A stretch of 64,000 nucleotides of DNA, taken from IMG/VR virus record IMGVR_UViG_3300021140_000485; one strand, written 5' to 3'. The first letter of the stretch is position 1. Each line of letters starts with the position of its first letter. The translations under genes were made by a program, and so were the position numbers. Source of the stretch: a virus (Duplodnaviria > Heunggongvirae > Uroviricota > Caudoviricetes). Positions 19,915-38,424 of this stretch are shown here, piece by piece. The notes beneath the pieces are model-generated. The model saw nothing but the letters and a program-made list of their open reading frames with translations, made no database searches and had not been told where the DNA came from.

Positions 19915-21029
19915 TCGTATTTACGAAAAATCCCATCTACCGTATGTAACGCTTGAGCAACCACTTGGTGCATATCATAATAAGCATAGGTCCCAAGTCT
20001 ACCCCCAAATATGTATTTAGATTCAGACTCTGTCAATGATTTATATTTTTCATAAATCTCAACATTTTTACCGTCTCTGATTGGGTAATATGGTTCGTTC
20101 TCACCAGTATACTCACAAGAGTATTCCTTACTGATATAAGTACCTTTTTGATTCTTAGGGTCAAACCATTTATGTTCTAATATTCGAGTATACTTAGTAT
20201 CAGAATCAGTAAAATTCATTACAGGGTTTCCTTGGAAGTTGTCAACTTCTAATTGGTAATTCTCCCATCTAAGACTACGATATTCCAATCGACCAAATTC
20301 GTAATCGTAAAACTTATCAATTGGTCCTGTGTAAATTATCTTATCAGATAAAGACTCAAGGATATCTCTATTCTCAAAAAAATCAAATTCAGTCAGTACT
20401 TCAATACCTGATAGTAGTTTTTCAAAAATTTGGGTATAACCTCCGTCAGGAATTCCTTGGTACTTGTCATTGAAATAATTGTTATTCCAAGTAAATCTAA
20501 CAGGTAATCTTTTAATAATGGATGGTGGTAGTTCAGAACATTTCTTATCCCATTGTTTCTCAGTATAACCTTTAATCAACTTTTCATATATGTCAGTCCC
20601 TACCATTGAAAGAGCTTGTTCTTCCAAATTAGTGATAGGTCCCTTATATTTTTGTTCATCAATCATATACTGTGCCTTTTCAGGTGTGTTAACACCCCAC
20701 AGTTGATTGAATGTCCACATATTGAAAGGTAATGAGTAAATCTCACCCTTATAGTTAGCCAAAGGTGAATTAACAAACTGATTAAAAGTTGCAAATCTGT
20801 TTACGTAGTTCCAAACTCTTTCATCATTAGTATGGAATATGTGAGCACCATACTTGTGAACGTGTATACCGTCTATATTTTCAGTATAACAGTTTCCACC
20901 GATATGATTTCTTTTTTCAACAACTAATACGTTGAATTTCTTACTTAGTTCGTGGGCGCAGATTGCTCCAAAGAGACCTGCCCCCACGATTACAAAGTCA
21001 TAATGTCTATAGGAAGTCAAAAACGACAC
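19902..21029 (-). CDS. glf: UDP-galactopyranose mutase.
   Basis: N-terminal FAD fold 'YDFVIVGAGLFGAICAHEL....VEKRNHIGGNCYT' and length/sequence colinear with Glf. Confidence 0.85.
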   Translation of the reverse strand: MSFLTSYRHYDFVIVGAGLFGAICAHELSKKFNVLVVEKRNHIGGNCYTENIDGIHVHKYGAHIFHTNDERVWNYVNRFATFNQFVNSPLANYKGEIYSLPFNMWTFNQLWGVNTPEKAQYMIDEQKYKGPITNLEEQALSMVGTDIYEKLIKGYTEKQWDKKCSELPPSIIKRLPVRFTWNNNYFNDKYQGIPDGGYTQIFEKLLSGIEVLTEFDFFENRDILESLSDKIIYTGPIDKFYDYEFGRLEYRSLRWENYQLEVDNFQGNPVMNFTDSDTKYTRILEHKWFDPKNQKGTYISKEYSCEYTGENEPYYPIRDGKNVEIYEKYKSLTESESKYIFGGRLGTYAYYDMHQVVAQALHTVDGIFRKYDYSK

Positions 21030-22164
21030 TGTCAGGAGATAATACAGGTTTATTAATCTTGTTCTCTAATCTTTCTTTGAACTCATACAAGAAGTTAGAT
21101 GAATTAGTATAACATCTATCCTCAATCAAGAAACACAAATTAGGATATGGGTTTTCTCTACCTTCATTAATCATTTGTTCAACAACCTCAAGAGCTTCTT
21201 TGTTCCTTTGTCTTTTCTCATAAAAGAATGCCAAATACATCAAGTGTTCATTTCTTGTTGGAGAGAACGGTCCTGCAGATTTGTAGTGTTCTTCCGCTTT
21301 ATCATACTCCCCTCTAAAGTTATATGCTTCACCCAAAAGTATAAATGTTAGATATGACATCTCATCTAATCTTGCAGGTTTACCAGTATTAAACCAGTTG
21401 TGATTAAGTGCTAAAAACTTATTAAAGTAGAAAATCGCTCTACGAGCATATTCGTCTGAGTGGTCCTTTCCAAATGCAAGTTCATCAGGATTTCCATAAC
21501 AATCAGCATAACTCTTACCAACATACCAAAGATGATACATATCCTCATTGATGGTGTTTCCAACAACTTTGTCAATTTCTAATTCCAAAGCATCTCTCAA
21601 AAACTTTCTTGGTGCAAACCAAGTCTGACCATCATTTGTGATTAAGTGTCTAAATCCAAAAGGTAGAACCATTCTTTGGAAATTTTCACCGACTTCAGGT
21701 AAGTGAATTGTTTCGTGTCTTTTATCGTGTTGAAAAAACCAAGGTCTTTTTGCATTCCATAACCAAGTTCTGTAATACTTTGTACCCATTGCCTGAGCTG
21801 TAATGTTGAATGAATCAATTGAAGTGTCTTCCAATACAGTCCAATCAAAGTCCTCATCAACAATTAGTTGTTCATCAGCATCCATTCTCAGAATCCAATC
21901 ACATCCGTGGTCAGCCTTCAAACATTCCTGTAAGGTATGGTCTCTATTCCATCCTGGATATTGCCATTCAATCTCATACAGGAATCCAGGAATCCCTTTT
22001 TCTTTGAAGTAGTTTCTTATAATGTCTTGTGTTCCGTCAGTAGACCCATTGTCCTGTATAACCCAATAATCAATATATTGGAAACAGGAGTCTAACATTC
22101 TTGTGATAGTTCTGGCCTCATTAGCCACCATCGCGTTTAAGCAAATTTTGGTTTTTTTATTCAT
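21007..22164 (-). CDS. Glycosyltransferase (GT-A-like N-terminal domain) with a C-terminal helical-repeat region.
   Basis: 'YWVIQDNGSTDGT' and 'MDADE'. The C-terminus has TPR-like helices. Confidence 0.65.
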   Translation of the reverse strand: MNKKTKICLNAMVANEARTITRMLDSCFQYIDYWVIQDNGSTDGTQDIIRNYFKEKGIPGFLYEIEWQYPGWNRDHTLQECLKADHGCDWILRMDADEQLIVDEDFDWTVLEDTSIDSFNITAQAMGTKYYRTWLWNAKRPWFFQHDKRHETIHLPEVGENFQRMVLPFGFRHLITNDGQTWFAPRKFLRDALELEIDKVVGNTINEDMYHLWYVGKSYADCYGNPDELAFGKDHSDEYARRAIFYFNKFLALNHNWFNTGKPARLDEMSYLTFILLGEAYNFRGEYDKAEEHYKSAGPFSPTRNEHLMYLAFFYEKRQRNKEALEVVEQMINEGRENPYPNLCFLIEDRCYTNSSNFLYEFKERLENKINKPVLSPDSVVFDFL

Positions 22165-23404
22165 AAATGTAATTCATTACTTGTTCTTGTTTATAGTATT
22201 TTTTGATTGGGACACTGTTTTGGAACTTTTGTGAGTGTTGTGTAATCTCATCCCAATTCCAATCAAAATAACCCATTTCTTCAATTCTGTCGTGTATTCT
22301 TTTATCATAGAAGTCCCTGATTAATCTGGCCCTACGATTAATATCTGTTGCATTATTATCAACTGTTGAGTTGTTATTGTTGTATTGTAGATATAACACC
22401 TTCTTTACGTGAATCATCTTGGTTTCTAAAAATGTACGAATAAGAATCTCCAAGTCATCAGCAACAGGTGTTAATTTATTGTGTCCTGAAATATTATGAT
22501 AAACACTTCTCTCCCACATTCTAGCGTGGTTTGGCATTGTGATATTGAATCTAATTGTGAGTGGGTTTACATCAGGGTACCAATGAGCAAGTCTATCAAC
22601 ACCGTCAACATTTACCCAACTGTGTCCAGCATACCCAAAGTCAAAATAGTTATCGTGACGAGCATACCAATTACCAGTCCAATCGTGGTCATAAAACTTA
22701 GGTTCACCGTCCTCGTATATCTCTGAACAATCAGTATAAAGAAATCCCGCGTCAGGGTATTTTAATATTGCATCATTAGCGGTTTCAAGACAAGTTGTAA
22801 CCAAACAATCATCGTGGTCCAATTCAATCAACCAATCACCATCACCTAACATAGCTGCACGATGTTTAGCCAAACCAATATTACCACCCGATAATGGATA
22901 AATCCTGTGAGGTTTTACCCGATAGTCTTTCTCCGCAATTTCAGTTATCATCTCCCAAGTTTCAGGGTCAGGCGAATCATCAACCACAACCCATTCCCAA
23001 TTATCAAAGGTTTGGTTGTTTAAAGACTCATAAGTCCTATAAATCCTTTCTCCTGTTTTGTAGGTTGGTGTGAAAATTGTAAATCTTGGTCTAAAATATT
23101 CACAGTTTCTAAACACAGTCTGACAAACAATTACGTTCGCCAAAATTGCTTCATCAATCGGTTCATCATAGTGAATGTGAAATCTTTTCAAATGATAGTG
23201 TGGGATGTTTACTTCTTCACCAAAACTTATAATTAAGTCAGGTTTATATTTTGTATAATCACCAACGACATCGTTTGTATATGGTAGATTATAAACAACA
23301 ACATCATCAAACAGATGTTCTTCCCAGTATATTTGTGAGATTAAGGTTGTTTCACCTTCCGTACCTAATCCATACACTATTGCTGACGGTTTTTTTGTCT
23401 TCAT
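22157..23404 (-). CDS. Family-2 glycosyltransferase with an N-terminal extension.
   Basis: 'FTIFTPTYKTGERI', 'WVVVDDSPD' and 'IELDHDD' (DxD). Confidence 0.75.
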   Translation of the reverse strand: MKTKKPSAIVYGLGTEGETTLISQIYWEEHLFDDVVVYNLPYTNDVVGDYTKYKPDLIISFGEEVNIPHYHLKRFHIHYDEPIDEAILANVIVCQTVFRNCEYFRPRFTIFTPTYKTGERIYRTYESLNNQTFDNWEWVVVDDSPDPETWEMITEIAEKDYRVKPHRIYPLSGGNIGLAKHRAAMLGDGDWLIELDHDDCLVTTCLETANDAILKYPDAGFLYTDCSEIYEDGEPKFYDHDWTGNWYARHDNYFDFGYAGHSWVNVDGVDRLAHWYPDVNPLTIRFNITMPNHARMWERSVYHNISGHNKLTPVADDLEILIRTFLETKMIHVKKVLYLQYNNNNSTVDNNATDINRRARLIRDFYDKRIHDRIEEMGYFDWNWDEITQHSQKFQNSVPIKKYYKQEQVMNYIYE

Positions 23405-23491
23405 ACGTTCAAAACATAGTTATTTAAAGTGTTGTTGTAAAGTTCATATAAAAGAAAAGGTCCTCTTTCGAGGACCAATTCACCAACCATC

Positions 23492-24232
23492 TTATACCCA
23501 CTCCATCATAATCTGAGACTTCCCGTTCCATTCTTTGATTTGACGTTTCGGAACCCAAAACTCCATCTCTCCGATTTCCTCAACTCGTTTGAGGTATGCC
23601 TCACGGTAAGCTCCGGCTTCAGAAGAGTTCTTGATGTAAGGGATTCTCATATGCTTTGAACAAATCTTACCCATTCCTGTCAACATTGAGAACTCATCAG
23701 TCAAATCTTTACCACAACACATACAAACCTTCATACGGCTTACGGTCATCTTACCTGAGAACTTAACCGCCTTTGGTGAGATAGCCAAAATCTTAGTGAT
23801 ATCCAAGATTGTTGGGTTGAACTCAAGGTTGTAAGTCTCCTTCATTTGTTGACCGATTTTACGTCCAACCTTGATGGTTTCTCCTACGGTTGGAAGTTTG
23901 AAGTTGATAGTCTTAGACTTGTCTTCTTCCTTCTCGATTTGTTTGAGAGCTGCGTTGATTTGTTTGTTGGTCAACGTTCCCCACTTTTGAAGTTTAAGAG
24001 AGATGTCTTTCACGAAGGTGCTCTCACCGTTGTATTCAACGATTTTCTTCAACTCGGGACGTTCCTCAACGTTCAAAGTGGTTACAGGTGCATTGAGACA
24101 TTTCTCAGCGGCTTCGACTTGCTTGGGAGTCAAACGACCCCACTGGTTAAGAGATTCTTTCATTTTAAGGATGAAGCTGTTGTTACCTTGGTAGTTACGA
24201 ACTTTTTCTTGGGTAGTGATGGTGGTTGTCAT
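23492..24232 (-). CDS. Hypothetical protein with two 'WG(R/T)LTxKQ' repeats and a C-terminal Zn-ribbon. The start is set to the internal 'MTTTITTQEK'.
   Basis: Codon usage here is GC-richer and C-ending than in the rest of the window. The upstream 44 codons of the ORF lack coding character. Confidence 0.55.
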   Translation of the reverse strand: MTTTITTQEKVRNYQGNNSFILKMKESLNQWGRLTPKQVEAAEKCLNAPVTTLNVEERPELKKIVEYNGESTFVKDISLKLQKWGTLTNKQINAALKQIEKEEDKSKTINFKLPTVGETIKVGRKIGQQMKETYNLEFNPTILDITKILAISPKAVKFSGKMTVSRMKVCMCCGKDLTDEFSMLTGMGKICSKHMRIPYIKNSSEAGAYREAYLKRVEEIGEMEFWVPKRQIKEWNGKSQIMMEWV

Positions 24233-24333
24233 ATTGGTTGGTTTTAAATTCAATACAAAGATAAGGAAAGTTTTGGTTCCCACAACACAATTCAAAAAAA
24301 AATCCCCTCTTTTTTTAGAGGGGATTGTCACTC

Positions 24334-24798
24334 TTAGTTTTGAGTGAAGGCTTGGTCTGCCCAAGTCTTAGCTCCGAAGAATTCCCAAATCTTCATATCA
24401 CACATATCGGGGAAAGACTCTCTCATTGTACCTACAGTCAACACGTCCAAGAATCCTTTGTCGATACTGTTCCACTTGTTTCCTTTGGTGGTCAATACGT
24501 TCATCCAGTTACCGTATTCGTCCTTCACTTGAACGTTAACAAGTGTGTTCTTCTTGTATCCACTGATAACTCGCTTGGGAGTTCCTTTGGTGTCGTGGAT
24601 ACTGATGAACCCTGCTCGACACTTACCAGCGATACGGAACTCATACTCTTTGTTCTCGTCTTTAAGGTGGTTAGAAACCGATACAGTGTGACGTTTGCTC
24701 TTTACAATGGTTTCGAAACTTCCGTAGAATACGTCTCCTGCCATTACGCCTTCAGTAACTTTGATGATAGATTTTGGGGTGGTGGTTGTGGTTGTCAT
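24334..24798 (-). CDS. Hypothetical protein (N-terminus 'MTTTTTTPKS').
   Basis: 154-aa ORF with the same GC-rich codon usage. Confidence 0.55.
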   Translation of the reverse strand: MTTTTTTPKSIIKVTEGVMAGDVFYGSFETIVKSKRHTVSVSNHLKDENKEYEFRIAGKCRAGFISIHDTKGTPKRVISGYKKNTLVNVQVKDEYGNWMNVLTTKGNKWNSIDKGFLDVLTVGTMRESFPDMCDMKIWEFFGAKTWADQAFTQN

Positions 24799-24863
24799 AT
24801 GTGTGTGTATTTGTTTTTAACACTACAAAGATAGTGATATTATCCAAACTGCCAAAACTTTTT

Positions 24864-25169
24864 TTAAGAATTTCTACAACTTCCGTCACAACCTTGTCCG
24901 GCACCTTCGTAGTAGTTGGTCCTGAAGTCAACGTGGGTTCCTGTTGGTACGTTTGTTTTTCTACCACATTGGATACAAACTTCAAACCCATCGATACTGT
25001 TACCTAAACTTGTAACCATACCGTTCTCGTCTATCTGTAACGTAACGTGTTCATCTCGGTTAGATTTCATTAACTCAATCTCATTCCAATATTTTTGACG
25101 AACATATTCACCGAGAGAATAATCGTTTGGGTGGGAGAGTATTTCTTTTGATGTGATTTTTATTTCCAT
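24864..25169 (-). CDS. Hypothetical Cys-rich small protein (start trimmed to 'MEIKITSKEI').
   Basis: 'CIQCGRK...GCDGSC'. Confidence 0.5.
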   Translation of the reverse strand: MEIKITSKEILSHPNDYSLGEYVRQKYWNEIELMKSNRDEHVTLQIDENGMVTSLGNSIDGFEVCIQCGRKTNVPTGTHVDFRTNYYEGAGQGCDGSCRNS

Positions 25170-25257
25170 AGTTTTTTTTGTAAAAATAGTTTTAAGTTGT
25201 TTGTATGTAAACAAGATACCAGTCTTGTGGTATTTATTAAATATCTTGAGGTAAAAT

Positions 25258-25782
25258 ATGAAATTAGATGACGTTTTAAGAATTTTCAAACATTCAGGTG
25301 GTTACCCAAACCCAAAAGCAACAGATATTTTGGATTTTATGAATCTGAACAAAATCAAGTTCGCCCAAATGGTTGCAGATAGATTTGGTGAATCAGGGGC
25401 CGATAAGTTCTTCGACACCTCAGTAAAACGTTTATCTCAAAAAGATGGTGTATTTAAAATTTACCCATATGCTCAATGGGGACAGGATAACCCAAGTTAT
25501 CTTGATTTGGATTTTAGTAATTCAAATACGGTTTTAGAAGAAGTTGGTAACCCTTACATTGGTATTTTGATTGAAGATTGGCAATTAAAAGATTCTTTAG
25601 TCGAGTTTATGGATGATGAAGGTAATACTCAAACATATACATTAGACGAACTTTTTGAAGTGATATCTGATGAAGAACCTTACCAACTTGATGATGCAAT
25701 AGAAGATTGGATGTCTGTCATACAAAGGTCAATTTCAAATTACTTAGGAGTTCCGGTAGTTTTAGGAAATAGGAAAAAATAA
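25258..25782 (+). CDS. Hypothetical acidic protein.
   Basis: 174-aa ORF with its own perfect terminator. Confidence 0.55.
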   Translation: MKLDDVLRIFKHSGGYPNPKATDILDFMNLNKIKFAQMVADRFGESGADKFFDTSVKRLSQKDGVFKIYPYAQWGQDNPSYLDLDFSNSNTVLEEVGNPYIGILIEDWQLKDSLVEFMDDEGNTQTYTLDELFEVISDEEPYQLDDAIEDWMSVIQRSISNYLGVPVVLGNRKK

Positions 25783-25786
25783 AAAA

Positions 25787-25814
25787 GGTCAGATGATATC
25801 TGACCTTTTCTTTT
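25787..25814 (+). terminator. Intrinsic terminator (GGTCAGAT-gat-ATCTGACC followed by a T-run).
   Basis: Perfect 8-bp stem 4 nt after the stop codon. Confidence 0.75.
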
Positions 25815-25863
25815 GGGACTGACAGGATTTGTCAATCGACTCCACCACCTGGACTACCAGGAT

Positions 25864-26184
25864 TTACTTGGTAACCAAAGCTTCCACTTTGGATTTCATA
25901 TGTTCTGACAATGATACCTCACCAACCGTGGGTGTAATCAATGAAGTCAAAACAATTGAATCAACCAAATATTTGTACGGAATGTGAACCAAGAAGTCGG
26001 TACCATTGAAGAAATCCAAATCTCCTTTGAGTTCCAAACAACCGTGAACCATTTTCAAAAACAACTTAAACTGAATACCGTCAACAAAGGTTTCATTCAA
26101 GAGGGTCCCGAACTTCTCGTTCTCAATCCTAATATTGTATGTAAAATTGATTTTCATACCACAAATATAGAAATAACTTTTCAT
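25864..26184 (-). CDS. Hypothetical protein (start trimmed to 'MKSYF', downstream of the terminator hairpin).
   Basis: The ORF's longer N-terminal extension would run through the 26190..26219 hairpin. Confidence 0.45.
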   Translation of the reverse strand: MKSYFYICGMKINFTYNIRIENEKFGTLLNETFVDGIQFKLFLKMVHGCLELKGDLDFFNGTDFLVHIPYKYLVDSIVLTSLITPTVGEVSLSEHMKSKVEALVTK

Positions 26185-26189
26185 ATAAA

Positions 26190-26219
26190 CAAAAAAACCC
26201 GAAGATTTTTTTCTTCGGG
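26190..26219 (-). terminator. Intrinsic terminator on the minus strand (CCCGAAGA-a7-TCTTCGGG followed by TTTTTTT).
   Basis: Perfect 8-bp stem. It closes the tRNA plus noncoding transcription unit. Confidence 0.7.
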
Positions 26220-27170
26220 TTCTGGCACTTAGGTTGAGAATACACCTTCGATTAAGAATCTTTAGGGACATTATTGTTTCTTCCCGTTTCCACTACCTTT
26301 TGAGTAGTAATTCTTAGTGACGGTTCCTTAGGGGTACCATTCCTTGAGTCGTGCGGTTACTCTCTTTGTACTTGTTACTCTCCGAGGTTGCCACCCCAGT
26401 GAATCCTTGCGGGATTAGAGAACTTTCTCAAGAATCATTTGGGTCTTGGGAACCCATAATGGCAATGAACATCTCATTACTATGTAGTCACCTTTCGCCT
26501 ACGACTGACAGACACTTTTCCTTCGTCTTTTAGTATTTGCATACTTCAAAATGCAAAGTTGTTGGTCTGTGGATGGTGAAAGTAGCGGTCTGCCAACCAG
26601 ACAAGCCATCTTTTGAACGACTCGATACTGAACTACTCTCTGAGATATCCCTACCTCGATACTTCAAGAAATCTTCATAATTAAAATCTTGGTAGATTCT
26701 AACTAAGGTTACCAACAGCACCACCTGTACGATAACATGACTTTCGTCTTTAAGACACCTCTGATATTGAATCCCGTGATTGTAAAGTTGGATGACTTTA
26801 CTTCTCACAACAATTCTACGAGTTATTCTTATTGTTCTTCCGAACTCAACTCAACGACCCACATCGCTGAGTCATCATTCCATTTTGTCTACAGTGTCAC
26901 CCTCGACTACTCAGGAACAATGATATCCCGCTTGCCTACTCGAGCTCTAAGAACCGAAGTTCAAAGAACCGCAGTCTCCGTTAACCTTCGGAGACCACTT
27001 TATCCCACTTTCGTGGTTTATTTATTGACCATAGGCGGCCAATTATCTTATTTACTAACCTGTTGGTTAGAAGGATAATCAAATATGTAAAAGAACGTGT
27101 TTCGTTAATTGTTTCACAAAGTTAAGAAGATTATTTTAATCTGTCAAGCACTTTGTAAAAGTTTTTTTTG
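26220..27170 (-). ncRNA. Candidate structured noncoding RNA or 3' trailer co-transcribed with tRNA-Met. About 950 nt, elevated GC, no ORF longer than 113 aa in any frame.
   Basis: Bounded by the tRNA (5' side on the minus strand) and a strong terminator (3' side). The frame-track ORFs here are short and non-protein-like. Identity unknown. Confidence 0.3.
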
Positions 27171-27244
27171 TTGCGGGAGTCGGACTCGAACCGACGGCCT
27201 CAAGGTTATGAGCCTTGCGAGCTACCAACTGCTACCACCCCGCG
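27171..27244 (-). tRNA. tRNA-Met (anticodon CAU), initiator-like.
   Basis: Reverse complement reads 'CGCGGGGTGGTAGCAGTTGGTAGCTCGCAAGGCTCATAACCTTGAGGCCGTCGGTTCGAGTCCGACTCCCGCAA'. It shows a cloverleaf, a C1·A72 mismatch, a GTCGG/CCGAC T-stem and TTCGAGT T-loop, the anticodon loop CTCATAA, and no encoded CCA. Confidence 0.85.
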
Positions 27245-27474
27245 ATATATTTTAAAGAACGTGATTCGAAAAAAAATCCCAAAACTTATATCCTCTCGAA
27301 CACTCATTTTGGGATTTGGGGTTTGAGGATTCTACTCCTCTTCTTCCGAGTGTCTCACAAACTTACGAACAAATTTTGGACTTGTCAAATTGTTTATGAA
27401 ACTTTTTTTGGGGGTATTATCTACCTTTCGGTAGAGTTTTATAAATATATGCTAAAATTGGAAAAAACCAAGTC

Positions 27475-27894
27475 TTACAGTATATTCATTAACAATTTAT
27501 TTAATTTTTCTCCTGTTTCAAGGTTTTTTACTTGTTTTTTGGTAAAATAACCACATTCGGTGTGTTCCTCACCGTCTTTGGCACTCTCCAAATCAGGTAT
27601 AAGTTCCGTATCGCTATTGTATTCATATAGATACATTAGTCCCTTGAAGTGTTTACCATCACGCGTAAATCTTGGTAACATACCAGTGAACTTTAAGTTA
27701 TCAGGATTCAAATCTAAATCAGTTTCTTCTTTAAATTCTCTAACAGCTGCCACCCTTGTCTCTTCCCCCTCTTCAATTTTTCCCGCAGGAACAGACCACA
27801 TACCAGGGAAACTACCCTTCTTATTTCTCTTACATAGTAAGCATTTGTCACCAACTTTGACTAGTACACCGACGTATCTTTTGTAATCATTCAT
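27475..27894 (-). CDS. Nudix hydrolase.
   Basis: Nudix box 'GKIEEGEETRVAAVREFKEETDL'. Confidence 0.8.
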   Translation of the reverse strand: MNDYKRYVGVLVKVGDKCLLCKRNKKGSFPGMWSVPAGKIEEGEETRVAAVREFKEETDLDLNPDNLKFTGMLPRFTRDGKHFKGLMYLYEYNSDTELIPDLESAKDGEEHTECGYFTKKQVKNLETGEKLNKLLMNIL

Positions 27895-27908
27895 ATTTAT
27901 AGATATCT

Positions 27909-28259
27909 ATGAGAGTAAAAATAGGTGAAAATATATTCAATGTGAAGATTAGACACGACAATAAAGGTCGTGCTATGGGTATGATGGGTCGTAAATTTAC
28001 TGACGAGTATAACGGTATGTTATTCTTTATGGATGAAGACTCAAGTTGTTTTTGGATGAAGAACTGCGTCATTCCTCTTGATATCATATTCATTGATAAT
28101 AGAGTAATAACTAAGATACACCACGACTGTCCTCCTTGTAAAGAAGATGACTGTCCAAGTTATTGTGGAAAGGGTGGAATGATTTTAGAAATTATGGGTG
28201 GTTCTGCAAAAGAACTCGATATCAAAAAAGGTGATGAGATTAAGATTCTTGTTGACTAG
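27909..28259 (+). CDS. DUF192-family protein.
   Basis: 'GMMGRKF....GMLFFMDEDSSCFWMKNCVIPLDIIFID' follows the DUF192/COG1430 pattern. Confidence 0.6.
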   Translation: MRVKIGENIFNVKIRHDNKGRAMGMMGRKFTDEYNGMLFFMDEDSSCFWMKNCVIPLDIIFIDNRVITKIHHDCPPCKEDDCPSYCGKGGMILEIMGGSAKELDIKKGDEIKILVD

Positions 28260-29658
28260 CATCAATCTTCTCTTGTAACTTTCTCAAAAATTCCTCACCA
28301 ATCATTTTAACAAACTTAATGTAAGGAGCGTCCTCTCTTTCAGGGTCGTATCTGTATGAACCTCTTGGTGGTCTTGTACTTCTTCCAAGATAGTTAAGTC
28401 CTGATATGTTGGTAATACATTTGTGTCCACCTGAGTTAGCTTGAATCAAGTCCCAAGCGTTGATACCAATCTTATCTAACATTTGCATTTCTTCTTCAGA
28501 TAGTTGGTCGTATGGTTTTTCCATCATATCCTTAATTTTATCAAGGATTTTTTCACCACCATCCATCATCATCAACTTACCACCATAAATTGCATCGAAG
28601 TCTTTGAATGTAAATCCTACTGATTCAGGTCCAACTGATGATTCACTCACATACTTTATCGTTGATAATGGGATTGTTCTATCTTTAAGTTGTCCCTCCC
28701 ATTTGGCCAGAACCTCTTGTGCAATCTCACCGAGATTAACACCTTTGAGTTCTCTATCTTTTTTGAATGGATTACAAGATGCCTGTACTAACCCTAACGG
28801 CCACATAATAATTAAGAAGTCAGCTTCAGGATTGTTTCTAAAAGGAGTGTATCGGTCATATGACCCAGTACCTTTTAAACTACCCATACCATACTGAACG
28901 ATGATATTACCAATCTTCCTAACATTTGGATGACCTTTCATTGAGTCCATATAGGTCTCAGCGTTTCTTTGAAGGTCCTCAGGTTTTTCTCTTGTATTGG
29001 AACCCATCCAAGATTTGATGTTGTTTAATATTGAAAGTAAGGATGGTTCCGAATCATTAACCAAGTATTCAAGGAACCCTTTCTTGTTTTTGAACGCCAA
29101 CAATAGTTTGTTTGTAACAAATCCTAACAACATTTTGTTACTAGCCAAATCTTTTTCTTTGTTAAGTCTAAACAAATAATTGATTACATCCTTGGTTGTT
29201 AAACCATATTTGGCAAAGTCTGCTGAGTCGACAGTTGATATTAATCTAATGTCATCAGCAGGAAATAATTCTTTTGGTGAGATAATTTGTGAAATGGTTT
29301 CAACGTTTGACCTTGCCTGTCTAAAAGACTTTGAAGCGTCTTTCTCAGCACCGACTTGTTTGTCGTGGTGGTCAGTGTGAATAACAAACATTGGTTTACC
29401 GTGAGCAAAATCAACTAAGACTGGCATTACATCACCAGATGCATCAGGTTTTTTAACTGAGAATTCTTTATCTCCATACTGTATAACCTCACTATCAACA
29501 ACTTTAATACCATTATCTTCAAGGTATTTTTTCATTGCAATTGCAGTTGTTACACCATCCAAATCTTGGTGGAAATATATTTTAGCCTTTGGGTATCTTT
29601 GTGCCAAAGCCTTAATGTCTCTTAAACCTGATTCCTTAATTATTTTTTTCATACACAC
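28240..29658 (-). CDS. DHH-family phosphoesterase (NrnA/RecJ-like DHH plus a C-terminal domain).
   Basis: 'FHQDLDGVTT' (DxD) and 'VIHTDHHDK' (DHH) motifs. 472 aa. Confidence 0.7.
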   Translation of the reverse strand: MCMKKIIKESGLRDIKALAQRYPKAKIYFHQDLDGVTTAIAMKKYLEDNGIKVVDSEVIQYGDKEFSVKKPDASGDVMPVLVDFAHGKPMFVIHTDHHDKQVGAEKDASKSFRQARSNVETISQIISPKELFPADDIRLISTVDSADFAKYGLTTKDVINYLFRLNKEKDLASNKMLLGFVTNKLLLAFKNKKGFLEYLVNDSEPSLLSILNNIKSWMGSNTREKPEDLQRNAETYMDSMKGHPNVRKIGNIIVQYGMGSLKGTGSYDRYTPFRNNPEADFLIIMWPLGLVQASCNPFKKDRELKGVNLGEIAQEVLAKWEGQLKDRTIPLSTIKYVSESSVGPESVGFTFKDFDAIYGGKLMMMDGGEKILDKIKDMMEKPYDQLSEEEMQMLDKIGINAWDLIQANSGGHKCITNISGLNYLGRSTRPPRGSYRYDPEREDAPYIKFVKMIGEEFLRKLQEKIDASQQES

Positions 29659-29661
29659 TAA

Positions 29662-30033
29662 TTACATTGATGGTAACATACTCATAAGAACCACATCGTT
29701 AGCTCTTAACCCATTTTTAGCCTTTAAATTACACAAATGATTGAATTTATACATATGGTTCGCTTGCATCGTCATATCTTCTAATTTACTCAAACTATCA
29801 CCAGGTTTGATTTTATACAACATTATGTTTTGCACACCTTCGTTTTTAATATCTTTAACTAAATCTTCTTTAGTGAAACAATATTTTGCACCGGCTTCAG
29901 TTGGTTTAGGACCTTTTTTAAGAATCTCTTCCGCTTTTTTAACGTAAAAAGATTCAGGTTGTGTCTGTTCACTAACAACCTTACGAATTAAGTTAGTTAA
30001 TTCTGACTCTGTTAATCTAATAACTTTTTTCAT
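29662..30033 (-). CDS. Hypothetical protein. Its N-terminus 'MKKVIRLTESELTNLIRKVVSEQ' belongs to the leader family.
   Basis: 123-aa ORF. Confidence 0.5.
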   Translation of the reverse strand: MKKVIRLTESELTNLIRKVVSEQTQPESFYVKKAEEILKKGPKPTEAGAKYCFTKEDLVKDIKNEGVQNIMLYKIKPGDSLSKLEDMTMQANHMYKFNHLCNLKAKNGLRANDVVLMSMLPSM

Positions 30034-30404
30034 TAGTATTTAAGTGTTAATAGGTATTTTAATTTGTTTATTAATAGTAACATCTCATCTCTCAAGTTGA
30101 GTAAGTCGCTATCAACTTTAGGGTCTAATCTGTCAGTAAGTGAAATTAAAAATTCACACGTACCATCAATAAAGCTTTGTAATGACATTGATTCTAAGTC
30201 TTGAAACATAATTGAGAATGATTCTGTAAATTCAGGTCTACCATATTTACCCATCATACCTTCAACAAAGTCATCAATGAATCCCCCCATTTTATCGTAT
30301 ACTTTACCGTATGCTCTGTGTTTTGCGTCATACATAGTTTGCCAATGTATAAATCTAAATTGGTTTTGTATTTGTACTAATTTTAATATTACTTCTTCTT
30401 TCAT
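30033..30404 (-). CDS. Hypothetical protein.
   Basis: 123-aa ORF. Confidence 0.5.
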   Translation of the reverse strand: MKEEVILKLVQIQNQFRFIHWQTMYDAKHRAYGKVYDKMGGFIDDFVEGMMGKYGRPEFTESFSIMFQDLESMSLQSFIDGTCEFLISLTDRLDPKVDSDLLNLRDEMLLLINKLKYLLTLKY

Positions 30405-30405
30405 T

Positions 30406-31461
30406 TTAAGCCGTCATTGGTCCTTTTATTAATGTATTCATAAACATACCCATTATATCCATTTTTTGTGAACCTAAAGACATTTCGTTACCACCATCTT
30501 TAACTTCATCTGATACTTTTGGGAAATCCTCTTGTAAATATGTTTGTGCTTCAGGAGTTTTTTCATACTTCTCCATCTTGGCTAATAATTCGTCTTCCCC
30601 TCCAACTATTTTTTCAAGTTCATCTGGTCCAACAAAATTTGCAACACCTAAATAATCTAAGAATCCTAAATAGAATTTGGTTTTACCCATCAAAACTCTA
30701 ATCTTCATATTACCTTTTCTCCATAGGTCCGAAACTCTTCCAGCACCTAATCCACCACCATAAAAAAATCTTTGTAAAAAATTTGGTTTGTTTAAAATTG
30801 TGGGGTCCAAGAATTTTTCTCTCTTAACTAACGACTCAAGTCCTTGAATTAGTTCTTGTTGTTGTTTAGCAGATTTAGTAGGTAATCTTTTCGCTAAAGA
30901 AGCCGCCTCAGTTCCAACACCTCTAAAAAGTCTTACCCATTCTTTGATGGTGTTTTTAAATCCTCTTGTGATGGCTCCACCAGGTATACGGTCAATGAAT
31001 TCATCAACTTTTGGTGCCCATTCTCTACCTTTTCTTGCGAAAGTACCAAGAGCACCTTCACTTTTAGCAATTTGATTTAGATATTTTTGCGCTTTAACAG
31101 TATCACCAGCATCAACTGCTTTAGATACCGCTCTCATTAATTGAGGTGTTTTACCCCCAACTTTCATCGCTCCCATAACAGATTTACCTAAAGCATCACC
31201 AATGTAAGGGACAACAGAAATTAACGATAAAAAGGCATAAAGGTTATCGCCTTGTCTGTAATAAGATATTGCGTTTATTAAATCAGCAATTCCTGTTGGG
31301 TCTACAATCCCAACCAAACTTAACACATCATTTTTCCAATTGTCCTCGTTAAGAGTTTTAGTATCAGAAGTTTTTTCCAATACCATAACACTCTTAATGA
31401 TTTCAAGTTGGGATTCCGTTAATATTACTTGAGGCATAAATTCTTTTACAATAAATACCAA
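30406..31461 (-). CDS. Hypothetical protein. It carries 'MPQVILTESQLEIIKSV' near its N-terminus, so the start may be the internal Met at 31437.
   Basis: 351-aa ORF, Gly/Ala/Lys-rich. Confidence 0.55.
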   Translation of the reverse strand: MVFIVKEFMPQVILTESQLEIIKSVMVLEKTSDTKTLNEDNWKNDVLSLVGIVDPTGIADLINAISYYRQGDNLYAFLSLISVVPYIGDALGKSVMGAMKVGGKTPQLMRAVSKAVDAGDTVKAQKYLNQIAKSEGALGTFARKGREWAPKVDEFIDRIPGGAITRGFKNTIKEWVRLFRGVGTEAASLAKRLPTKSAKQQQELIQGLESLVKREKFLDPTILNKPNFLQRFFYGGGLGAGRVSDLWRKGNMKIRVLMGKTKFYLGFLDYLGVANFVGPDELEKIVGGEDELLAKMEKYEKTPEAQTYLQEDFPKVSDEVKDGGNEMSLGSQKMDIMGMFMNTLIKGPMTA

Positions 31462-31465
31462 GAAG

Positions 31466-31492
31466 TTAAAAAGAAAACCCCCACTTTTTTAG
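31466..31492 (-). terminator. Conserved-family terminator ('AAAACCCCCAC-tttttta-GTGAGGGTT').
   Basis: Overlaps the stop of the methyltransferase gene, with a minus-strand U-run. Confidence 0.6.
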
Positions 31493-32358
31493 TGAGGGTT
31501 CTGATTGTTGAAATCGATGACTTGTTGTCTTCGTTGTTCTACGAATAACCCGACTCTGTCTCGAGCCACTTTAGAATAGTTTGGACTCAGTTCAATACCA
31601 ATCCATCTTCTGTCAAGTGTCTCAGCGGCGACCAAACTTGTACCTGAACCTGCGAATGGGTCAAGAACAATGTCATTCTTATACGTAAGAATTTTGATTG
31701 CCTTGGTTGGAATATCCATTGAGAACGTGGCTTTAGTTAGACTTCGTGTGTCAGCAAAGTATTTCCACTGTCCGAAAACCAAATCGATGAACTCACGTTT
31801 TTGTTGTTCCGTATACATCATCTTTGGTCTCATATTACCATCCTTACCTTCTACTTCTCCCATTTCGCCAGTCCATTCAGGTTGACCTTTTACTTTCTTA
31901 ATGTGTTTGTTTTTGTATGCCAAAATAACACATTCTTTTGGGTTATAGATGTAAGGGGCTGAAGGGCTCATCCAAGACCCCCAAGCCGTGGTACGACTTC
32001 TATGTGGTGATTCTTCTTCAAGGTCAACAACTCCGAAGAATTTGTAACCAATCTGTTTCATAATCTGCCACACTTCACTGACCATAAAGATTCTACCTCC
32101 TTTATCCTGACGGTTGATTTCGTATGGGATGTTAAGAGCAATCCTACCATCATCTTTCAATACACGGTATGCTTGTTCCATCCACGAATATGTAAATTTT
32201 ACATATTCCTCCCAAACCATATCATCTTCGTGAACATCATAATCGATACCAACACCATAAGGTGGTGATGTAACAATCAGGTCCACTGAACCTTCAGGCA
32301 TCGAAGCCATCACTTCAATACAATCTCCATTAATTACTCTTCCAATTAAATCTTCCAT
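31489..32358 (-). CDS. DNA methyltransferase (N6-adenine/N4-cytosine, beta-class motif order).
   Basis: Motif IV 'DLIVTSPPYG' near the N-terminus and motif I 'LDPFAGSGTS' near the C-terminus. Confidence 0.8.
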   Translation of the reverse strand: MEDLIGRVINGDCIEVMASMPEGSVDLIVTSPPYGVGIDYDVHEDDMVWEEYVKFTYSWMEQAYRVLKDDGRIALNIPYEINRQDKGGRIFMVSEVWQIMKQIGYKFFGVVDLEEESPHRSRTTAWGSWMSPSAPYIYNPKECVILAYKNKHIKKVKGQPEWTGEMGEVEGKDGNMRPKMMYTEQQKREFIDLVFGQWKYFADTRSLTKATFSMDIPTKAIKILTYKNDIVLDPFAGSGTSLVAAETLDRRWIGIELSPNYSKVARDRVGLFVEQRRQQVIDFNNQNPH

Positions 32359-32359
32359 A

Positions 32360-33529
32360 TTATAATCCTAAAATTTCAAGGGTTTTATTCACTCTACTTT
32401 GTGGTGACAAGTTTCTTTCATAATACTCCCTTGCGTTTTTAGAAATATAACTTAAAAATTCGTGGTCATCAACAACCTCTTTGAATCTTTCCTCAATCAT
32501 TTTTACGTGGTGAGGTCCTGATAGTCGGTCACTGGCAACTCCATTGTGTCTTGGCATATCATCAGGATATGGAACAGAAATGTAATGTACGTTTGGAATT
32601 AACTTTTCGTGCATTTCAACTTGGAACTCAAATCTAATCAATGGCATTCCAATCGCCATACATTCAATGTCTCTATAACAAAGTTCTCCCACTCCTGCCA
32701 TAGACAACGACACTTGGTAATCTATCATATCATTGAAGTATGCTTCAGGGGTTGTTGGTGTTTCGGGACAATACAACAACTCATCCGAGAAATGTTTTAA
32801 AGCGGGTCTTTGTGAAACATTACCTCTGAAATACATTAAAGGTACTTTGTTTTGAACGTGTTTTCTTTTGTGATAAAACTGTTCCAAGTCAATCAAACCA
32901 GATGGGAAATAAATCCAAGGTGAGTATTTGTCATAGTTATTATCAACGTGGTGTTTAATCTTGTAATCAATGAACTGTGAAATCAAAACCTTCTTACATA
33001 AAGGATTGTGTTTCTCATTCATAGTTGCGTAACCCAAGTCATCAGAGACACTCATAATCCAAAACTCACCAGAGTCAGCATCTTCAATAACATATTCACA
33101 CTCCAACAATAAGAATTCTTTGGCAAGACCTTTTTTTAATTTAATTTCTTGTCTGTCAAAGTGAGCATTCTCAAAATGCCTGTTCTCAATAACCTCATAT
33201 CGTTCTGATAGTTCTTGGGTTAACTCATCCCAAAATAAATTGTAATTACGATAGTATCGAGTTTTGTCATTTGTTGGGTTATGGATTATCAGTCTACGAT
33301 GAGGTTTATCACCATTTCCACTTTTATTCTGAACCTCACGGTTGAGATACCATAGAGCTTTATTCAAATCTTGAAGTTCCTTGTCAGTCCCCTTTTTACC
33401 TGCCCTTGAAATATATTTTACAGTATTCCCAAGATTAAATCCTAAGTCCCAAGCTTCAATAACTTTTATTGCTTCATATGGATTATTCTTTCCCCCATAA
33501 TGTTGAGGGTGATTTACTTGTTCACTCAT
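32360..33529 (-). CDS. DUF3310-domain protein with a C-terminal domain of roughly 300 aa and unknown (possibly transferase-like) function.
   Basis: 'HPQHYGGKNNPYEAIKVIEAW.....GNTVKYISRAGKK....AL...WYL' fits the DUF3310 pattern. Confidence 0.65.
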   Translation of the reverse strand: MSEQVNHPQHYGGKNNPYEAIKVIEAWDLGFNLGNTVKYISRAGKKGTDKELQDLNKALWYLNREVQNKSGNGDKPHRRLIIHNPTNDKTRYYRNYNLFWDELTQELSERYEVIENRHFENAHFDRQEIKLKKGLAKEFLLLECEYVIEDADSGEFWIMSVSDDLGYATMNEKHNPLCKKVLISQFIDYKIKHHVDNNYDKYSPWIYFPSGLIDLEQFYHKRKHVQNKVPLMYFRGNVSQRPALKHFSDELLYCPETPTTPEAYFNDMIDYQVSLSMAGVGELCYRDIECMAIGMPLIRFEFQVEMHEKLIPNVHYISVPYPDDMPRHNGVASDRLSGPHHVKMIEERFKEVVDDHEFLSYISKNAREYYERNLSPQSRVNKTLEILGL

Positions 33530-33532
33530 ATA

Positions 33533-34696
33533 TTAATCGTTATAAATTGAACCACTTTTATTTTCAGACTCTTCGAATTGATGTTGTTCCATAATATCTT
33601 TAAGTGGTGATTTTTGAGTATCAACTTTAGTATTCATATTATGAATAATCTTATCAAGAGTTAATGCAAAGTCCAGAGTTTCGGATATGATACCAACAAT
33701 TTTATATGGGTCACCATTTGATGCCGGTCTACGGTCTTCAACATAACCCTTCCATTCTTTTGATGTAGACAATGGAACTCTGATTGATGCACCTCGGTCA
33801 GCAACCCCCCAACTAAACTTGTCAATAGATTGGGTTTCGTGTTTACCAGTCAAACGAAGATTGTTATCAGAACCGTAATTGTTAATGTGTAACTGATGAC
33901 GTGAATCAAAGGCGTTAAAGATGTTTTTGAAGTATTCATCACCACCTTCATTTCTCATCTTGTCATTTGAGAAGTTACAGTGTAATCCTGAACCATTCCA
34001 ATCACCCATCACAGGTTTAGGGTGGAATTCAATCTTAAAACCATAGTCCTCAGACATTTGTTGTAAAATGTATCTCGACATCCACAAATCATCACCGGCC
34101 TTTAATTTACCTTTGGAGAATACCTGGTACTCCCACTGACCCAATAAGACCTCGGCGTTTGTACCTGTAATTTCAATACCTGCCAAGATACAATTTTCCA
34201 TATGAGTATCCACAAATTTTCTACCGTTAACTTGTCCGTTACCTACACCACAATAGTATTTTCCTTGTGGTTCAGGATATCCATTCTCAGGGAAACCCAA
34301 AGGTCTACCATCTTTCATAATGGTATACTCTTGTTCAAAACCAAACCAAAGGTCCTCTTCTTCTTCCCCAACAAGACTTCTTGTATTTGATACGTGTGGA
34401 GTCCCATCGGGATTCATAACCTCACACAACACCAAGAAAGACCATAGACCACCTTCGTTAAGTGAGTTGTGATAAACTCTAACAGGTTTCAAAATACAAT
34501 CAGAAAAATGTCCGTCAGCTTGTTGTGTTGATGAACCATCAAAACTCCACTCAGGGCAATCCTTCAGTGTTATAATATCCCCATATGGAATATTCTGAAG
34601 ACCAGTCTCTTCTTTTTCAATCACCTTAACCTTACTTCTAAGATTAGGTTCTGGCTGATACCCATCCAACCACACATATTCTAATTTAACTTTCAT
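33533..34696 (-). CDS. Glutamine synthetase type-II-like protein.
   Basis: 'LEYVWLDG', 'FDGSSTQQADG..SD..L.PV', 'LVLCEV', 'GVADRGASIRVP' and 'NGDPY' are colinear with the GSII beta-grasp and catalytic domains. Confidence 0.75.
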   Translation of the reverse strand: MKVKLEYVWLDGYQPEPNLRSKVKVIEKEETGLQNIPYGDIITLKDCPEWSFDGSSTQQADGHFSDCILKPVRVYHNSLNEGGLWSFLVLCEVMNPDGTPHVSNTRSLVGEEEEDLWFGFEQEYTIMKDGRPLGFPENGYPEPQGKYYCGVGNGQVNGRKFVDTHMENCILAGIEITGTNAEVLLGQWEYQVFSKGKLKAGDDLWMSRYILQQMSEDYGFKIEFHPKPVMGDWNGSGLHCNFSNDKMRNEGGDEYFKNIFNAFDSRHQLHINNYGSDNNLRLTGKHETQSIDKFSWGVADRGASIRVPLSTSKEWKGYVEDRRPASNGDPYKIVGIISETLDFALTLDKIIHNMNTKVDTQKSPLKDIMEQHQFEESENKSGSIYND

Positions 34697-34701
34697 ATTA
34701 T

Positions 34702-34893
34702 TTAATTTTCTTTTTTTACAACGTAGTAACCTTTGGAATAACTAGACTCCTCAATCAATCCTTCATCCATTAGTTTATTTAATTTAACTTCAGTTTCATT
34801 TTCAGTCTCTTTCAAAATGTATTTTGAAATGTAACTGATGTGAATTGGTTGTCTCAACTTAGAAAGTAGTGTCTTGAGCGTCTTGTCTTCCAT
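34702..34893 (-). CDS. Hypothetical small protein.
   Basis: 63-aa ORF. Confidence 0.4.
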   Translation of the reverse strand: MEDKTLKTLLSKLRQPIHISYISKYILKETENETEVKLNKLMDEGLIEESSYSKGYYVVKKEN

Positions 34894-34895
34894 AA

Positions 34896-35123
34896 TTAAT
34901 AATCTAAAAATTTATCATTGTCTTCCAAAAATTCTAAAAATGGGTGGTCATAATCCATATCAACCCATTTTCCTTTATTTCCATCCCATATCAAATATTC
35001 ATCTGAGATATTTGTTCGGGTATATTTAAGTTCAAAAGTTTTACCCTTATCATCCTTGACCTTATATTGAGTTGTATAAGAGAATGATAGTTCTTCTGGT
35101 GGACCTACAATTGAGTATTTCAT
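34896..35123 (-). CDS. Hypothetical small protein.
   Basis: 75-aa ORF. Confidence 0.4.
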   Translation of the reverse strand: MKYSIVGPPEELSFSYTTQYKVKDDKGKTFELKYTRTNISDEYLIWDGNKGKWVDMDYDHPFLEFLEDNDKFLDY

Positions 35124-35344
35124 TTCTTTTTCTTTTTGTACTTTTTCTCAACACCCTCCGTTTTTTCTTTTTTCTTAACTTCGGTAATGATTGGAGCAAC
35201 TCGTCCATCTTCTTTCCATTCGTTCTTTGGAATGAACTTCCAATAACCCGTTGAAACTCGTTGGTCCGCAACCTTGTCTTCAACGCGCATAATTCGTCCC
35301 ACCTCGTACTGAGATGTTTCTTTGATAGCTTTAATGCATTTCAT
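35120..35344 (-). CDS. Hypothetical small protein with a poly-Lys tail.
   Basis: 74 aa. Preferred over the overlapping ORF 35062..35283. Confidence 0.4.
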   Translation of the reverse strand: MKCIKAIKETSQYEVGRIMRVEDKVADQRVSTGYWKFIPKNEWKEDGRVAPIITEVKKKEKTEGVEKKYKKKKK

Positions 35345-35546
35345 TTTTAGTAGTATTAGATTTTAAGTTAAATGTAGTAATGATTTCTTGTTCTGACAAA
35401 TTCTTCTCATAAAGTTTATAAACTTTGCTTGAAAACTCATCCATAAAGATGATTGCGTCAGCCTTACCATAGAGACCGTCCAAATTGTATTTGTATAAGT
35501 AATGTAAGGTTGTTTGTTCTGAAATGTATCGTCTGTGAAAACCCAT
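35331..35546 (-). CDS. Hypothetical small protein.
   Basis: 71 aa. Preferred over the overlapping ORF 35363..35566. Confidence 0.35.
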   Translation of the reverse strand: MGFHRRYISEQTTLHYLYKYNLDGLYGKADAIIFMDEFSSKVYKLYEKNLSEQEIITTFNLKSNTTKNEMH

Positions 35547-35555
35547 ATCACAAAA

Positions 35556-36341
35556 TTACGAAACAATTTTTAAATTATCAAAATTTTCTAACTTTTCTTT
35601 TGGGACACTTTGAAGAATATATGAAAGAAGTTTTCTTTTCGCCATTGGGATAAGCGTCTCTTCAAAAGGGAAATGTTGTCTTGATTGAAACTCAAACACA
35701 GGTAATTTACTTTGGTACACGTCTTGTTTCCAATTTGTAGATTCATTAATTATTTGATTAACTGTTCTACCATCAGTAACTCCTGAAAAAATAGACTCAA
35801 GATGTAATTTAGAGTCTTTTGACTTTTTTATCTTTCTTATTGAGTACTCCCAAATGTATAACTCTTTTTCAGGTTTACGAGTATAAACTAAGTACCCATA
35901 ACCTTTGTGTAAGTAGTTCTTATTTTTTTTATGTTGTATATCTGTAGATTCGTAAACAATAGACCATATGGATTTACCAATACTGAAAACATCCATAAGT
36001 TTTGAGTTTGAGTAATATAAAGTTTTCTTTAATTCTAAACTTTGGTCTTCATTTAGATTAGGTAATTTTTTTGGGTATAATTCTTTCAATAGAATTTCAT
36101 CATCACAAGTTTCGAATTTTTTATTCGTAAGTAATAATGTATTTTCTCGATTAATTGATTGGACATTAGCTAAATGAAGTGAAATCTCGACAAAATCAGG
36201 GTATATCTTATAATCGTCAAAACTACTCTCACATTTTTGTATGTAATCTAATAGCGTATATTTGTTATACTCAAAATCTATTGGTTCCTGAAACATCCAT
36301 TCAGGACTCAACTTAAATTGTGTTTTTCTCTTTCTTCCCAT
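35556..36341 (-). CDS. Hypothetical protein.
   Basis: 261-aa ORF. Confidence 0.5.
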   Translation of the reverse strand: MGRKRKTQFKLSPEWMFQEPIDFEYNKYTLLDYIQKCESSFDDYKIYPDFVEISLHLANVQSINRENTLLLTNKKFETCDDEILLKELYPKKLPNLNEDQSLELKKTLYYSNSKLMDVFSIGKSIWSIVYESTDIQHKKNKNYLHKGYGYLVYTRKPEKELYIWEYSIRKIKKSKDSKLHLESIFSGVTDGRTVNQIINESTNWKQDVYQSKLPVFEFQSRQHFPFEETLIPMAKRKLLSYILQSVPKEKLENFDNLKIVS

Positions 36342-36371
36342 TTACTAAATGATAATTAAAAAGAAAATTTA

Positions 36372-38123: not shown

Positions 38124-38210
38124 TATTTTTTATTTGATAAATACTTTGATTGATTTATATTTCTACAAGTTTACTATTTATATGTAATAAAACTCCAATA
38201 CTACAAAATT

Positions 38211-38363
38211 ATGGGATGTGGTTGTAAAAACAAAGCAAACAACAGTACTAACACTCAATCAAGTCAACAACAGACTCAAGCAACCGCTCAAAGAGCTCAG
38301 TATGTTCAAGAGACTGTTAAAGATGCCATTAAGAAAACAGTTGAGAAATATTACAAACGTTAA
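38211..38363 (+). CDS. Small protein (50 aa) 'MGCGCKNKANNSTNTQ...', with its own terminator.
   Basis: Manual translation. A perfect hairpin plus T-run follows the stop after 27 nt. Confidence 0.4.
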   Translation: MGCGCKNKANNSTNTQSSQQQTQATAQRAQYVQETVKDAIKKTVEKYYKR

Positions 38364-38389
38364 GTTGTAATATGTTAGTAAAATTAAAA

Positions 38390-38414
38390 GGGTGAAGAAA
38401 TTCACCCTTTTTTT
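38390..38414 (+). terminator. Intrinsic terminator (GGGTGAA-gaaa-TTCACCC followed by a T-run).
   Basis: Perfect 7-bp stem. Confidence 0.7.
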
Positions 38415-38424
38415 ATATTTATAA

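Follow-up and report, generated by a model that had tools for sequence, protein, structure and literature searches.

This report concerns a long structured RNA encoded in a 64,000-nucleotide (nt) stretch of viral DNA, IMG/VR record IMGVR_UViG_3300021140_000485, which is referred to below as the window and to which all positions belong. On the minus strand, positions 27041..26231 very likely encode a GOLLD RNA that is full-length and of the env-38 subtype; the large phage that carries it would probably have a member of the Bacteroidota as its host. The RNA itself is not new; it is one further member of the known GOLLD family, and its arrangement has already been described for env-38. What may be new is the leader in front of it, in which a boxA of the type found in ribosomal RNA (rRNA) operons (rrn) is present in nearly all members of the env-38 subtype. 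With modest confidence, the reading favoured here is that the GOLLD genes of Bacteroidota phages, joined in this window by an initiator-like transfer RNA (tRNA), are organized as miniature rRNA operons; a host promoter would be followed at a fixed distance by an rrn boxA, and the antitermination and RNA-chaperone complex of the Nus factors would thereby be borrowed so that an untranslated cage RNA of ribosome size is transcribed and folded without premature termination by Rho.

Identity and extent of the RNA

A scan of the whole window with Rfam at the gathering threshold, one of the checks proposed in a preliminary description of the locus, returned only two matches, a tRNA and GOLLD (RF02032). 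The GOLLD match covers 26231..26640 (-) with 307.5 bits against a gathering threshold of 150 (E = 4e-87) and spans positions 1-416 of the 416 in the model, which represents the conserved 3' half of the RNA only. The 5' domain outside the model, 26641..27040 (-), was recognised by alignment to the 5' region of env-38, by matches in huge phages and by covariation of helices 2-22 (alignment A1). The huge-phage matches are two uncultured records of ~640 kb, LR745206 and LR756502, to which the 5' domain is 69-72% identical; in both, the Rfam GOLLD 3' domain follows directly after the 5' domain, and in one of them a tRNA-Met(CAU) precedes. The structured RNA as a whole is placed at ~27041..26231 (-), a length of 811 nt. 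Its alignment with env-38 runs from one end to the other and shows 64.8% identity over 782 positions; in the 5' domain, extended stretches are identical. The env-38 sequence was transcribed from the supplement of PMC12286853 and came to 814 nt instead of ~831; residue numbers of env-38 are mapped approximately because this transcript is ~17 nt short.

The env-38 RNA is known as an RNA-only 14-mer cage with D7 symmetry (PDB 9MEE), in which residues 1-420 form the cap and residues 421-833 the ring, and it was found 'downstream of Met-tRNA' (Kretsch et al., Nature 2025, PMC12286853). Further traits of GOLLD are present in the window, namely a phage context (tail-fibre genes, and relatives both in IMG/VR and in huge phages) and a tRNA-Met 128 nt upstream. 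A search with one 18-nt motif of the 5' domain showed that at least 120 IMG/VR viral contigs share the subtype, and nearly all of the ~120 viral loci listed hold a full-length copy of ~800 nt by nhmmer; related loci are given L numbers where they are named below. Among the matches listed, the L010 clade is the closest, being 86.5% identical to the window RNA.

The preliminary description had pictured about 950 nt devoid of credible open reading frames (ORFs) on the 3' side of the tRNA, with raised guanine plus cytosine (G+C) content and a terminator at the end, and this picture was borne out. From the tRNA to the terminator, the longest ORFs are 113 amino acids (aa) on the plus strand and 92 aa on the minus strand, and the next small gene starts near 26160; a Pfam search of these two ORFs and of the downstream ORF gave no match. 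The G+C content is 0.39-0.44 over 26200..27250 against 0.30-0.35 in the adjacent flanks. The rise is real, yet not distinctive, because coding stretches elsewhere in the window (23500..24700) equal it. The intrinsic terminator that closes GOLLD lies at 26186..26223 (-) and consists of a stem of 12 pairs (26223..26194) that encloses a 6-nt loop and is followed by a T-run, in agreement with the terminator first described. Of 86 related loci, 63 have at least five consecutive T no more than 70 nt from the 3' end of GOLLD.

Secondary structure and the predicted cage

Covariation was analysed, as had also been proposed, in a set of 57 related copies with less than 88% mutual identity, the structure being obtained with RNAalifold. 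The prediction comprises 188 pairs in 40 helices, and 153 of the 188 show changes on both sides. Standard pairs occupy 96.2% of the cells, compared with 75.4% after shuffling and 39-44% when each partner is shifted 1-3 columns. The score for covariation, 0.636, contrasts with 0.09-0.14, and the observed values were reached by none of 500 shuffles. Support for the helices of the 5' half, which the Rfam model leaves out, equals that for the helices of the 3' half. A two-domain secondary structure, backed by covariation, is common to the window RNA and its 57 diverged copies, and the long structured non-coding RNA that had been suspected at this site is confirmed by the Rfam score, the end-to-end alignment with env-38 and the strong covariation together.

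The same results bear on the other architectures that had been offered for the stretch, namely a protein-coding block in decay, an array of degenerate tRNAs or an element like an intron. In their favour are short ORFs (92-113 aa) and, upstream of the tRNA, a T-arm-like hairpin at 27340..27325 that can be aligned with the T-arms of real tRNAs in other loci. The ORFs, however, are without Pfam match, ARAGORN reports a single tRNA in the window, and no further tRNA or intron family is found by Rfam, even at permissive thresholds in the leader. Decay cannot be reconciled with the compensatory changes, which extend along the entire RNA in 57 sequences. Together with the Rfam match, this covariation rules out these architectures in practice, and the chance that any of them applies is negligible.

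The loops that are invariant in the family (GAAA, CAAAA and GUGGUG) are retained in the window RNA, which also carries two loops with self-complementary centres, CGCAA and GGCA. Across the 57 copies, the L21a-type loop reads CGCAA in 41 and UCGAA in 12, and the L21b-type loop has a central GC in 55; these loop names are approximate, since the transcribed env-38 sequence is ~17 nt short. A GC/CG switch has been tied to an inter-subunit kissing bridge (PMC12286853), and the CGCAA/UCGAA split agrees with that switch. The loops of the inter-subunit kissing contacts appear to be conserved in the window RNA. By homology to the solved env-38 structure, this RNA would fold into a 5' 'cap' and a 3' 'ring' domain, and its copies would self-assemble into a closed, protein-free cage, which in env-38 is a 14-mer.

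Directly 5' of helix P1 of GOLLD, a further hairpin, here called P0, can be read from the sequence at 27041..27080 (-); it is closed by GATTATC / GATAATT and has a variable tip. Its closing stem, with variable inserts and some compensatory variants, is found in most related loci (L004-L123). The P0 hairpin is outside the env-38 construct used for cryo-electron microscopy.

A putative rRNA-operon-type boxA in the leader

The 128 nt that separate the tRNA from the structured RNA hold a promoter-like site (27117..27147 (-), TTGACA-N17-TAACTTTG, a match to the promoter consensus discussed below), a boxA-like box and the small P0 hairpin. The box of this GOLLD leader, GTTCTTTTACA at 27086..27096 (-), has one mismatch to the boxA consensus GYTCTTTAANA (Baniulyte et al., PMC5725501); another box, GTTCTTTAAAA at 27250..27260 (-), lies 5 nt upstream of the tRNA and matches the consensus perfectly. 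Both boxes are of the form GTTCTTT(A/T)A. The two boxes belong to a 17-nt direct repeat, CACGTTCTTTWAMATAT, which is present exactly twice in the window, at 27263..27247 before the tRNA and at 27099..27083. The second copy of the repeat begins 18 nt after the inner promoter-like site, and the GOLLD-leader box itself is 20 nt after the -7 box.

Such a box is a nearly constant part of the subtype. The strict core GTTCTTT[AG]A occurs on the GOLLD strand within 150 nt upstream of the RNA in 106 of 108 unique related loci, while the rest of the ~1 Mb examined holds 64 other copies on the same strand and 42 on the opposite one. Measured to its start, the box lies a median of 27 nt past the -7 promoter box in the family, and a median of 78 nt separates that start from helix P1. 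On the same strand, eighteen more copies of the core are located 300-600 nt upstream of GOLLD (L004-L123); these distal copies may stand ahead of neighbouring tRNAs or other RNA genes, and the signal would then be used more widely. The boxA-like core is also repeated inside the GOLLD 5' domain of the window, where GGTTCTTTGAAC and GGTTCTTAGAGC lie in helix 5 at 26946..26972 (-) (alignment A1), probably by chance.

The likeness to the boxA of rRNA operons was the reason for counting 9-mers, without a prior motif, in the 16S leaders of Bacteroidota; 120 of the 16S 5' ends were fetched, and 101 leaders entered the count. The 9-mer GTTCTTTGA was present in 44 of the 101, which makes it second overall, behind a k-mer of the 16S start, and the top 9-mer not belonging to 16S; GTTCTTT[AG]A was found in 49 of the 101. 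The GTTCTTTGA copies are situated 47-267 nt upstream of the 16S 5' end and are often extended to CGTTCTTTGAAAATATTGAA, the longer form that also precedes GOLLD. Leaders and spacers of rRNA operons carry a boxB hairpin, boxA and boxC in that order, boxB is not required for rrn antitermination, and long non-coding RNAs are targets of Rho (Dudenhoeffer et al., PMC6614797). Untranslated CRISPR arrays are shielded from Rho by boxA, and such boxes are present in Bacteroidetes too (Stringer et al., eLife 2020, PMC7665894). The 30 nt that precede the box have, across the GOLLD family, a folding energy of -4.0 kcal/mol, compared with -1.3 kcal/mol for shuffled sequences, TCGGAAACGTCCGA being one example; in the window, a strong hairpin is found in the tRNA leader and only a 4-bp one in the GOLLD leader.

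The leader box suggests that GOLLD is transcribed under Nus-factor antitermination of the rrn type. In such a mechanism, boxA would recruit NusB/NusE and other Nus factors, as it does in rRNA operons, and their recruitment would shield the long untranslated transcript from Rho and may aid its folding during transcription. In the literature searched, which left most subscription journals outside, no report was found that links GOLLD to boxA or to antitermination of GOLLD itself. It might instead be supposed that the box is not a Nus site at all and is part of a precursor structure of GOLLD, a signal for processing by a ribonuclease (RNase) or a DNA site at which a regulator of the phage acts; the resemblance to rrn boxA would then be either convergent or due to shared processing. 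The box adjoins the P0 hairpin, which is conserved, and might indicate where maturation takes place, leaders of rRNA operons are processing substrates as well, and the GOLLD box of the window deviates from the consensus; moreover, the env-38 construct assembles without the box (PMC12286853), which is therefore not needed for the cage. Set against this are the recurrence of the same 9-mer as the commonest non-16S motif in the 101 Bacteroidota 16S leaders, at the usual position of boxA, the match to the experimentally derived GYTCTTTAANA, the strand specificity of the box and its fixed spacing of 27 nt after the promoter consensus, and the clear need for a boxA in an untranslated RNA of 0.8 kb (PMC7665894, PMC6614797). 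This alternative is accordingly judged rather unlikely.

The interpretation as a cage-forming RNA expressed in the manner of a miniature rRNA operon has several points to contend with. The GTTCTTTTACA of the window departs at one position from both the strict family motif and the consensus, and no clear hairpin precedes this box. No box was found within ~1.7 kb upstream of GOLLD in the alphaproteobacterial phages phiCbK, CcrBL9 and Bajun; boxA, at least in the form of this motif, is not a general feature of GOLLD, because these three loci lack it. The host phylum is deduced from the types of promoter and boxA only. At this locus the promoters, the function of boxA and the cage are all predictions from sequence, and the stoichiometry of the cage could differ from that of env-38, to which identity is only ~65%, a decamer having been reported for the 3' domain of another GOLLD (PMC12990946, a review).

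A pairing of the box with a conserved GGAAGAAC block in GOLLD was also considered and was dropped; L001 has GGAAGACC at the block without a matching change in its box.

Predicted promoters and transcription units

The pattern TTG-N20-TAnnTTTG, the promoter consensus of Bacteroidota, has 10 sites in the window against 2.0 expected, an enrichment of about five-fold; none of 100 shuffles reached 10 sites. The sites are at 5007, 7629, 11040, 18738, 26162, 27117, 27358, 35551, 42400 and 52847. The site at 27117 is the inner one, between the tRNA and GOLLD, and the one at 27358..27388 (-), with TTGACA-N17-TAAGTTTG (-33 TTG / -7 TAnnTTTG type, likewise a consensus match), lies upstream of the tRNA. 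The site at 26162 comes directly after the GOLLD terminator and ahead of the next small gene.

The inner site is conserved in position in the closest relatives listed (the L010 clade). In the family, a consensus promoter is present within 110 nt upstream of boxA in 82 of 108 unique loci, compared with a background of 2.2% per window of that size. Of 118 loci, 101 are without a tRNA in the 300 nt upstream, and 14 have a tRNA-Met there. GOLLD of the env-38 subtype would thus normally be a transcription unit of its own, because most loci have such a promoter and most are without a nearby tRNA; the tRNA-Met neighbour is a trait of the clade of the window and of some others. In the window, GOLLD would accordingly form its own unit, consisting of a host-type promoter, boxA ~20 nt further on, a small 5' hairpin, the 811-nt RNA and an intrinsic terminator, and the initiator-like tRNA-Met would have its own promoter-like site and its own boxA.

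The tRNA and the RNA had been described at first as co-transcribed. This claim stands in so far as no terminator is present between the two, so that read-through from the tRNA into GOLLD is possible, although not needed; it is weakened by the Bacteroidota-type promoter consensus between them. In its strongest form, it would hold that transcription from the upstream promoter yields one precursor containing both tRNA-Met and GOLLD, which are then separated by processing of the RNase P/Z type, the inner site being inactive. The two genes share a strand and are separated by 128 nt in which no hairpin followed by a T-run occurs, and in the more distant L036 and L001 the interval between tRNA-Met and GOLLD contains a hairpin and a boxA box but lacks the promoter consensus. 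In addition, tRNAs embedded in GOLLD or beside it are known from the literature (PMC12286853, PMC12990946), and rRNA operons repeat boxA in leader and spacer (PMC6614797). Such a single precursor is nevertheless unlikely in view of the full TTGACA-N17-TAACTTTG consensus that is kept in the closest relatives listed, the promoter at a fixed distance from boxA in the 82 family members, the absence of a nearby tRNA in the 101 loci and, in the window, a hairpin with a U-run that stands between the upstream promoter-like site and the tRNA.

The initiator-like tRNA-Met and its leader

The tRNA-Met(CAU) at 27170..27244 (-) is the single tRNA of the window according to ARAGORN, and it is matched by Rfam with a low score of 37 bits. 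Its anticodon and the C1 opposite A72, which can be read from the sequence, are as the preliminary description gave them. Its designation as initiator-like is reasonable. The tRNA is identical at 63 of 78 aligned positions to the E. coli tRNA-fMet and at 48 of 79 to the elongator. Initiator tRNAs are marked by three consecutive G:C pairs at the base of the anticodon stem (29-31:39-41); the stem CAAGG/CCUUG of this tRNA contains two, the pair 29:41 being A:U. The tRNA is called initiator-like, and not a strict initiator, because one of the hallmark G:C pairs is missing. It also has an extra U in the D stem (GGUAGC for GGAGC), which, like the AGG/CCU anticodon stem, is common to its closest listed relatives.

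The leader of the tRNA holds a hairpin at 27269..27317 (-), between the promoter-like site and the first boxA-like box. Its arms are AAATCCCAAAA / TTTTGGGATTT, which form 11 bp around a 20-nt loop and are followed by a run of eight U. Compensatory changes in the stem are seen in L010, L089, L046, L053 and L080, and in these same relatives the loop GAGTGTTCGAGAG is shared and lies upstream of their tRNA-Met. The hairpin resembles a terminator placed ahead of the tRNA and could be an attenuator, a small RNA or a boxB-like element; a permissive Rfam scan of the leaders (27030..27470) recovered the tRNA alone and no match for this hairpin.

Slightly further upstream, at 27325..27340 (-), the T-arm-like sequence GAGGAGTAGAATCCTC aligns with genuine tRNA T-arms of L038 and L001 and may be the remnant of a second tRNA. 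In L003 (LR756504.1, positions 3018..3459), a huge phage of 636 kb, a tmRNA gene comes no more than 12 nt after a tRNA-Met(CAU), so that there too a tRNA of the initiator type immediately precedes a large structured RNA.

Comparison with known systems

The closest counterpart of the window RNA is env-38 itself. The two RNAs are of similar length (811 and 833 nt), have the same two-domain layout and can be aligned end to end at ~65%; they share the same helices, the GAAA, CAAAA and GUGGUG loops, the loops with GC palindromes and the site downstream of a Met-tRNA. They differ by ~35% sequence divergence and in the length of several variable hairpins. The env-38 construct used for structural work was without flanks, whereas the window displays the predicted promoter, boxA and P0. 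ROOL, another large ornate RNA of phages and prophages that lies near tRNA genes, assembles into a cage without protein (PMC12286853). It is unrelated in sequence and fold, however, and the Rfam scan gave no ROOL match in the window.

The leader resembles that of rRNA operons in having the same boxA core between a nearby promoter and a long, structured RNA that is not translated, and also in the two boxes in a row, one in the tRNA leader and one in the GOLLD leader, which recall the boxes of rrn leader and spacer. The RNA downstream is here a phage RNA and not rRNA, and the boxB-like hairpin, although common in the family, is weak in the GOLLD leader of the window. The boxA of CRISPR arrays (PMC7665894) provides a precedent for the protection from Rho of a long untranslated transcript that is not ribosomal, but it belongs to a host defence locus and not to a phage RNA gene. 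The nut sites of phage lambda show that a phage can employ host Nus factors through boxA (PMC6614797). In lambda, though, boxA comes before boxB and the phage protein N is needed, while the order and the sequence in the window appear to follow those of the host rrn. We know of no N-like factor for a leader of this type.

Significance

The locus itself changes little, because it adds one more GOLLD to a family of hundreds. Its flanks are of more use; the transcripts used for structural work have been cut at the boundaries of the family. The boxA leader would provide a testable model of how GOLLD is made, and not of what the cage does. A leader formed by a promoter, boxA and a 5' hairpin could account for the way in which an untranslated phage RNA of 0.8 kb escapes Rho and perhaps folds co-transcriptionally, and it gives grounds for examining Nus dependence as well as constructs that contain P0. 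Together with the adjacent initiator-like tRNA, boxA would be a further tie of GOLLD to the translation and rRNA machinery of the host, and a site beside an initiator tRNA, behind signals of rRNA type, fits the published idea of a translation-related role in lytic growth. For uncultivated phages that carry a GOLLD of the env-38 subtype, the leader might also serve as a simple marker of the host phylum.

Other genes of the window

A megablast of 20000..40000 of the window against a phage collection revealed no near-identical genome, and most of the other large ORFs are without PHROG match. The region 39444..49284 (-) encodes three tandem paralogous genes of 1052, 1140 and 1087 aa with strong matches to collagen-like phage tail-fibre families. 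A NUDIX hydrolase gene is also present in the window and, like the collagen-like tail-fibre genes, points to a phage.

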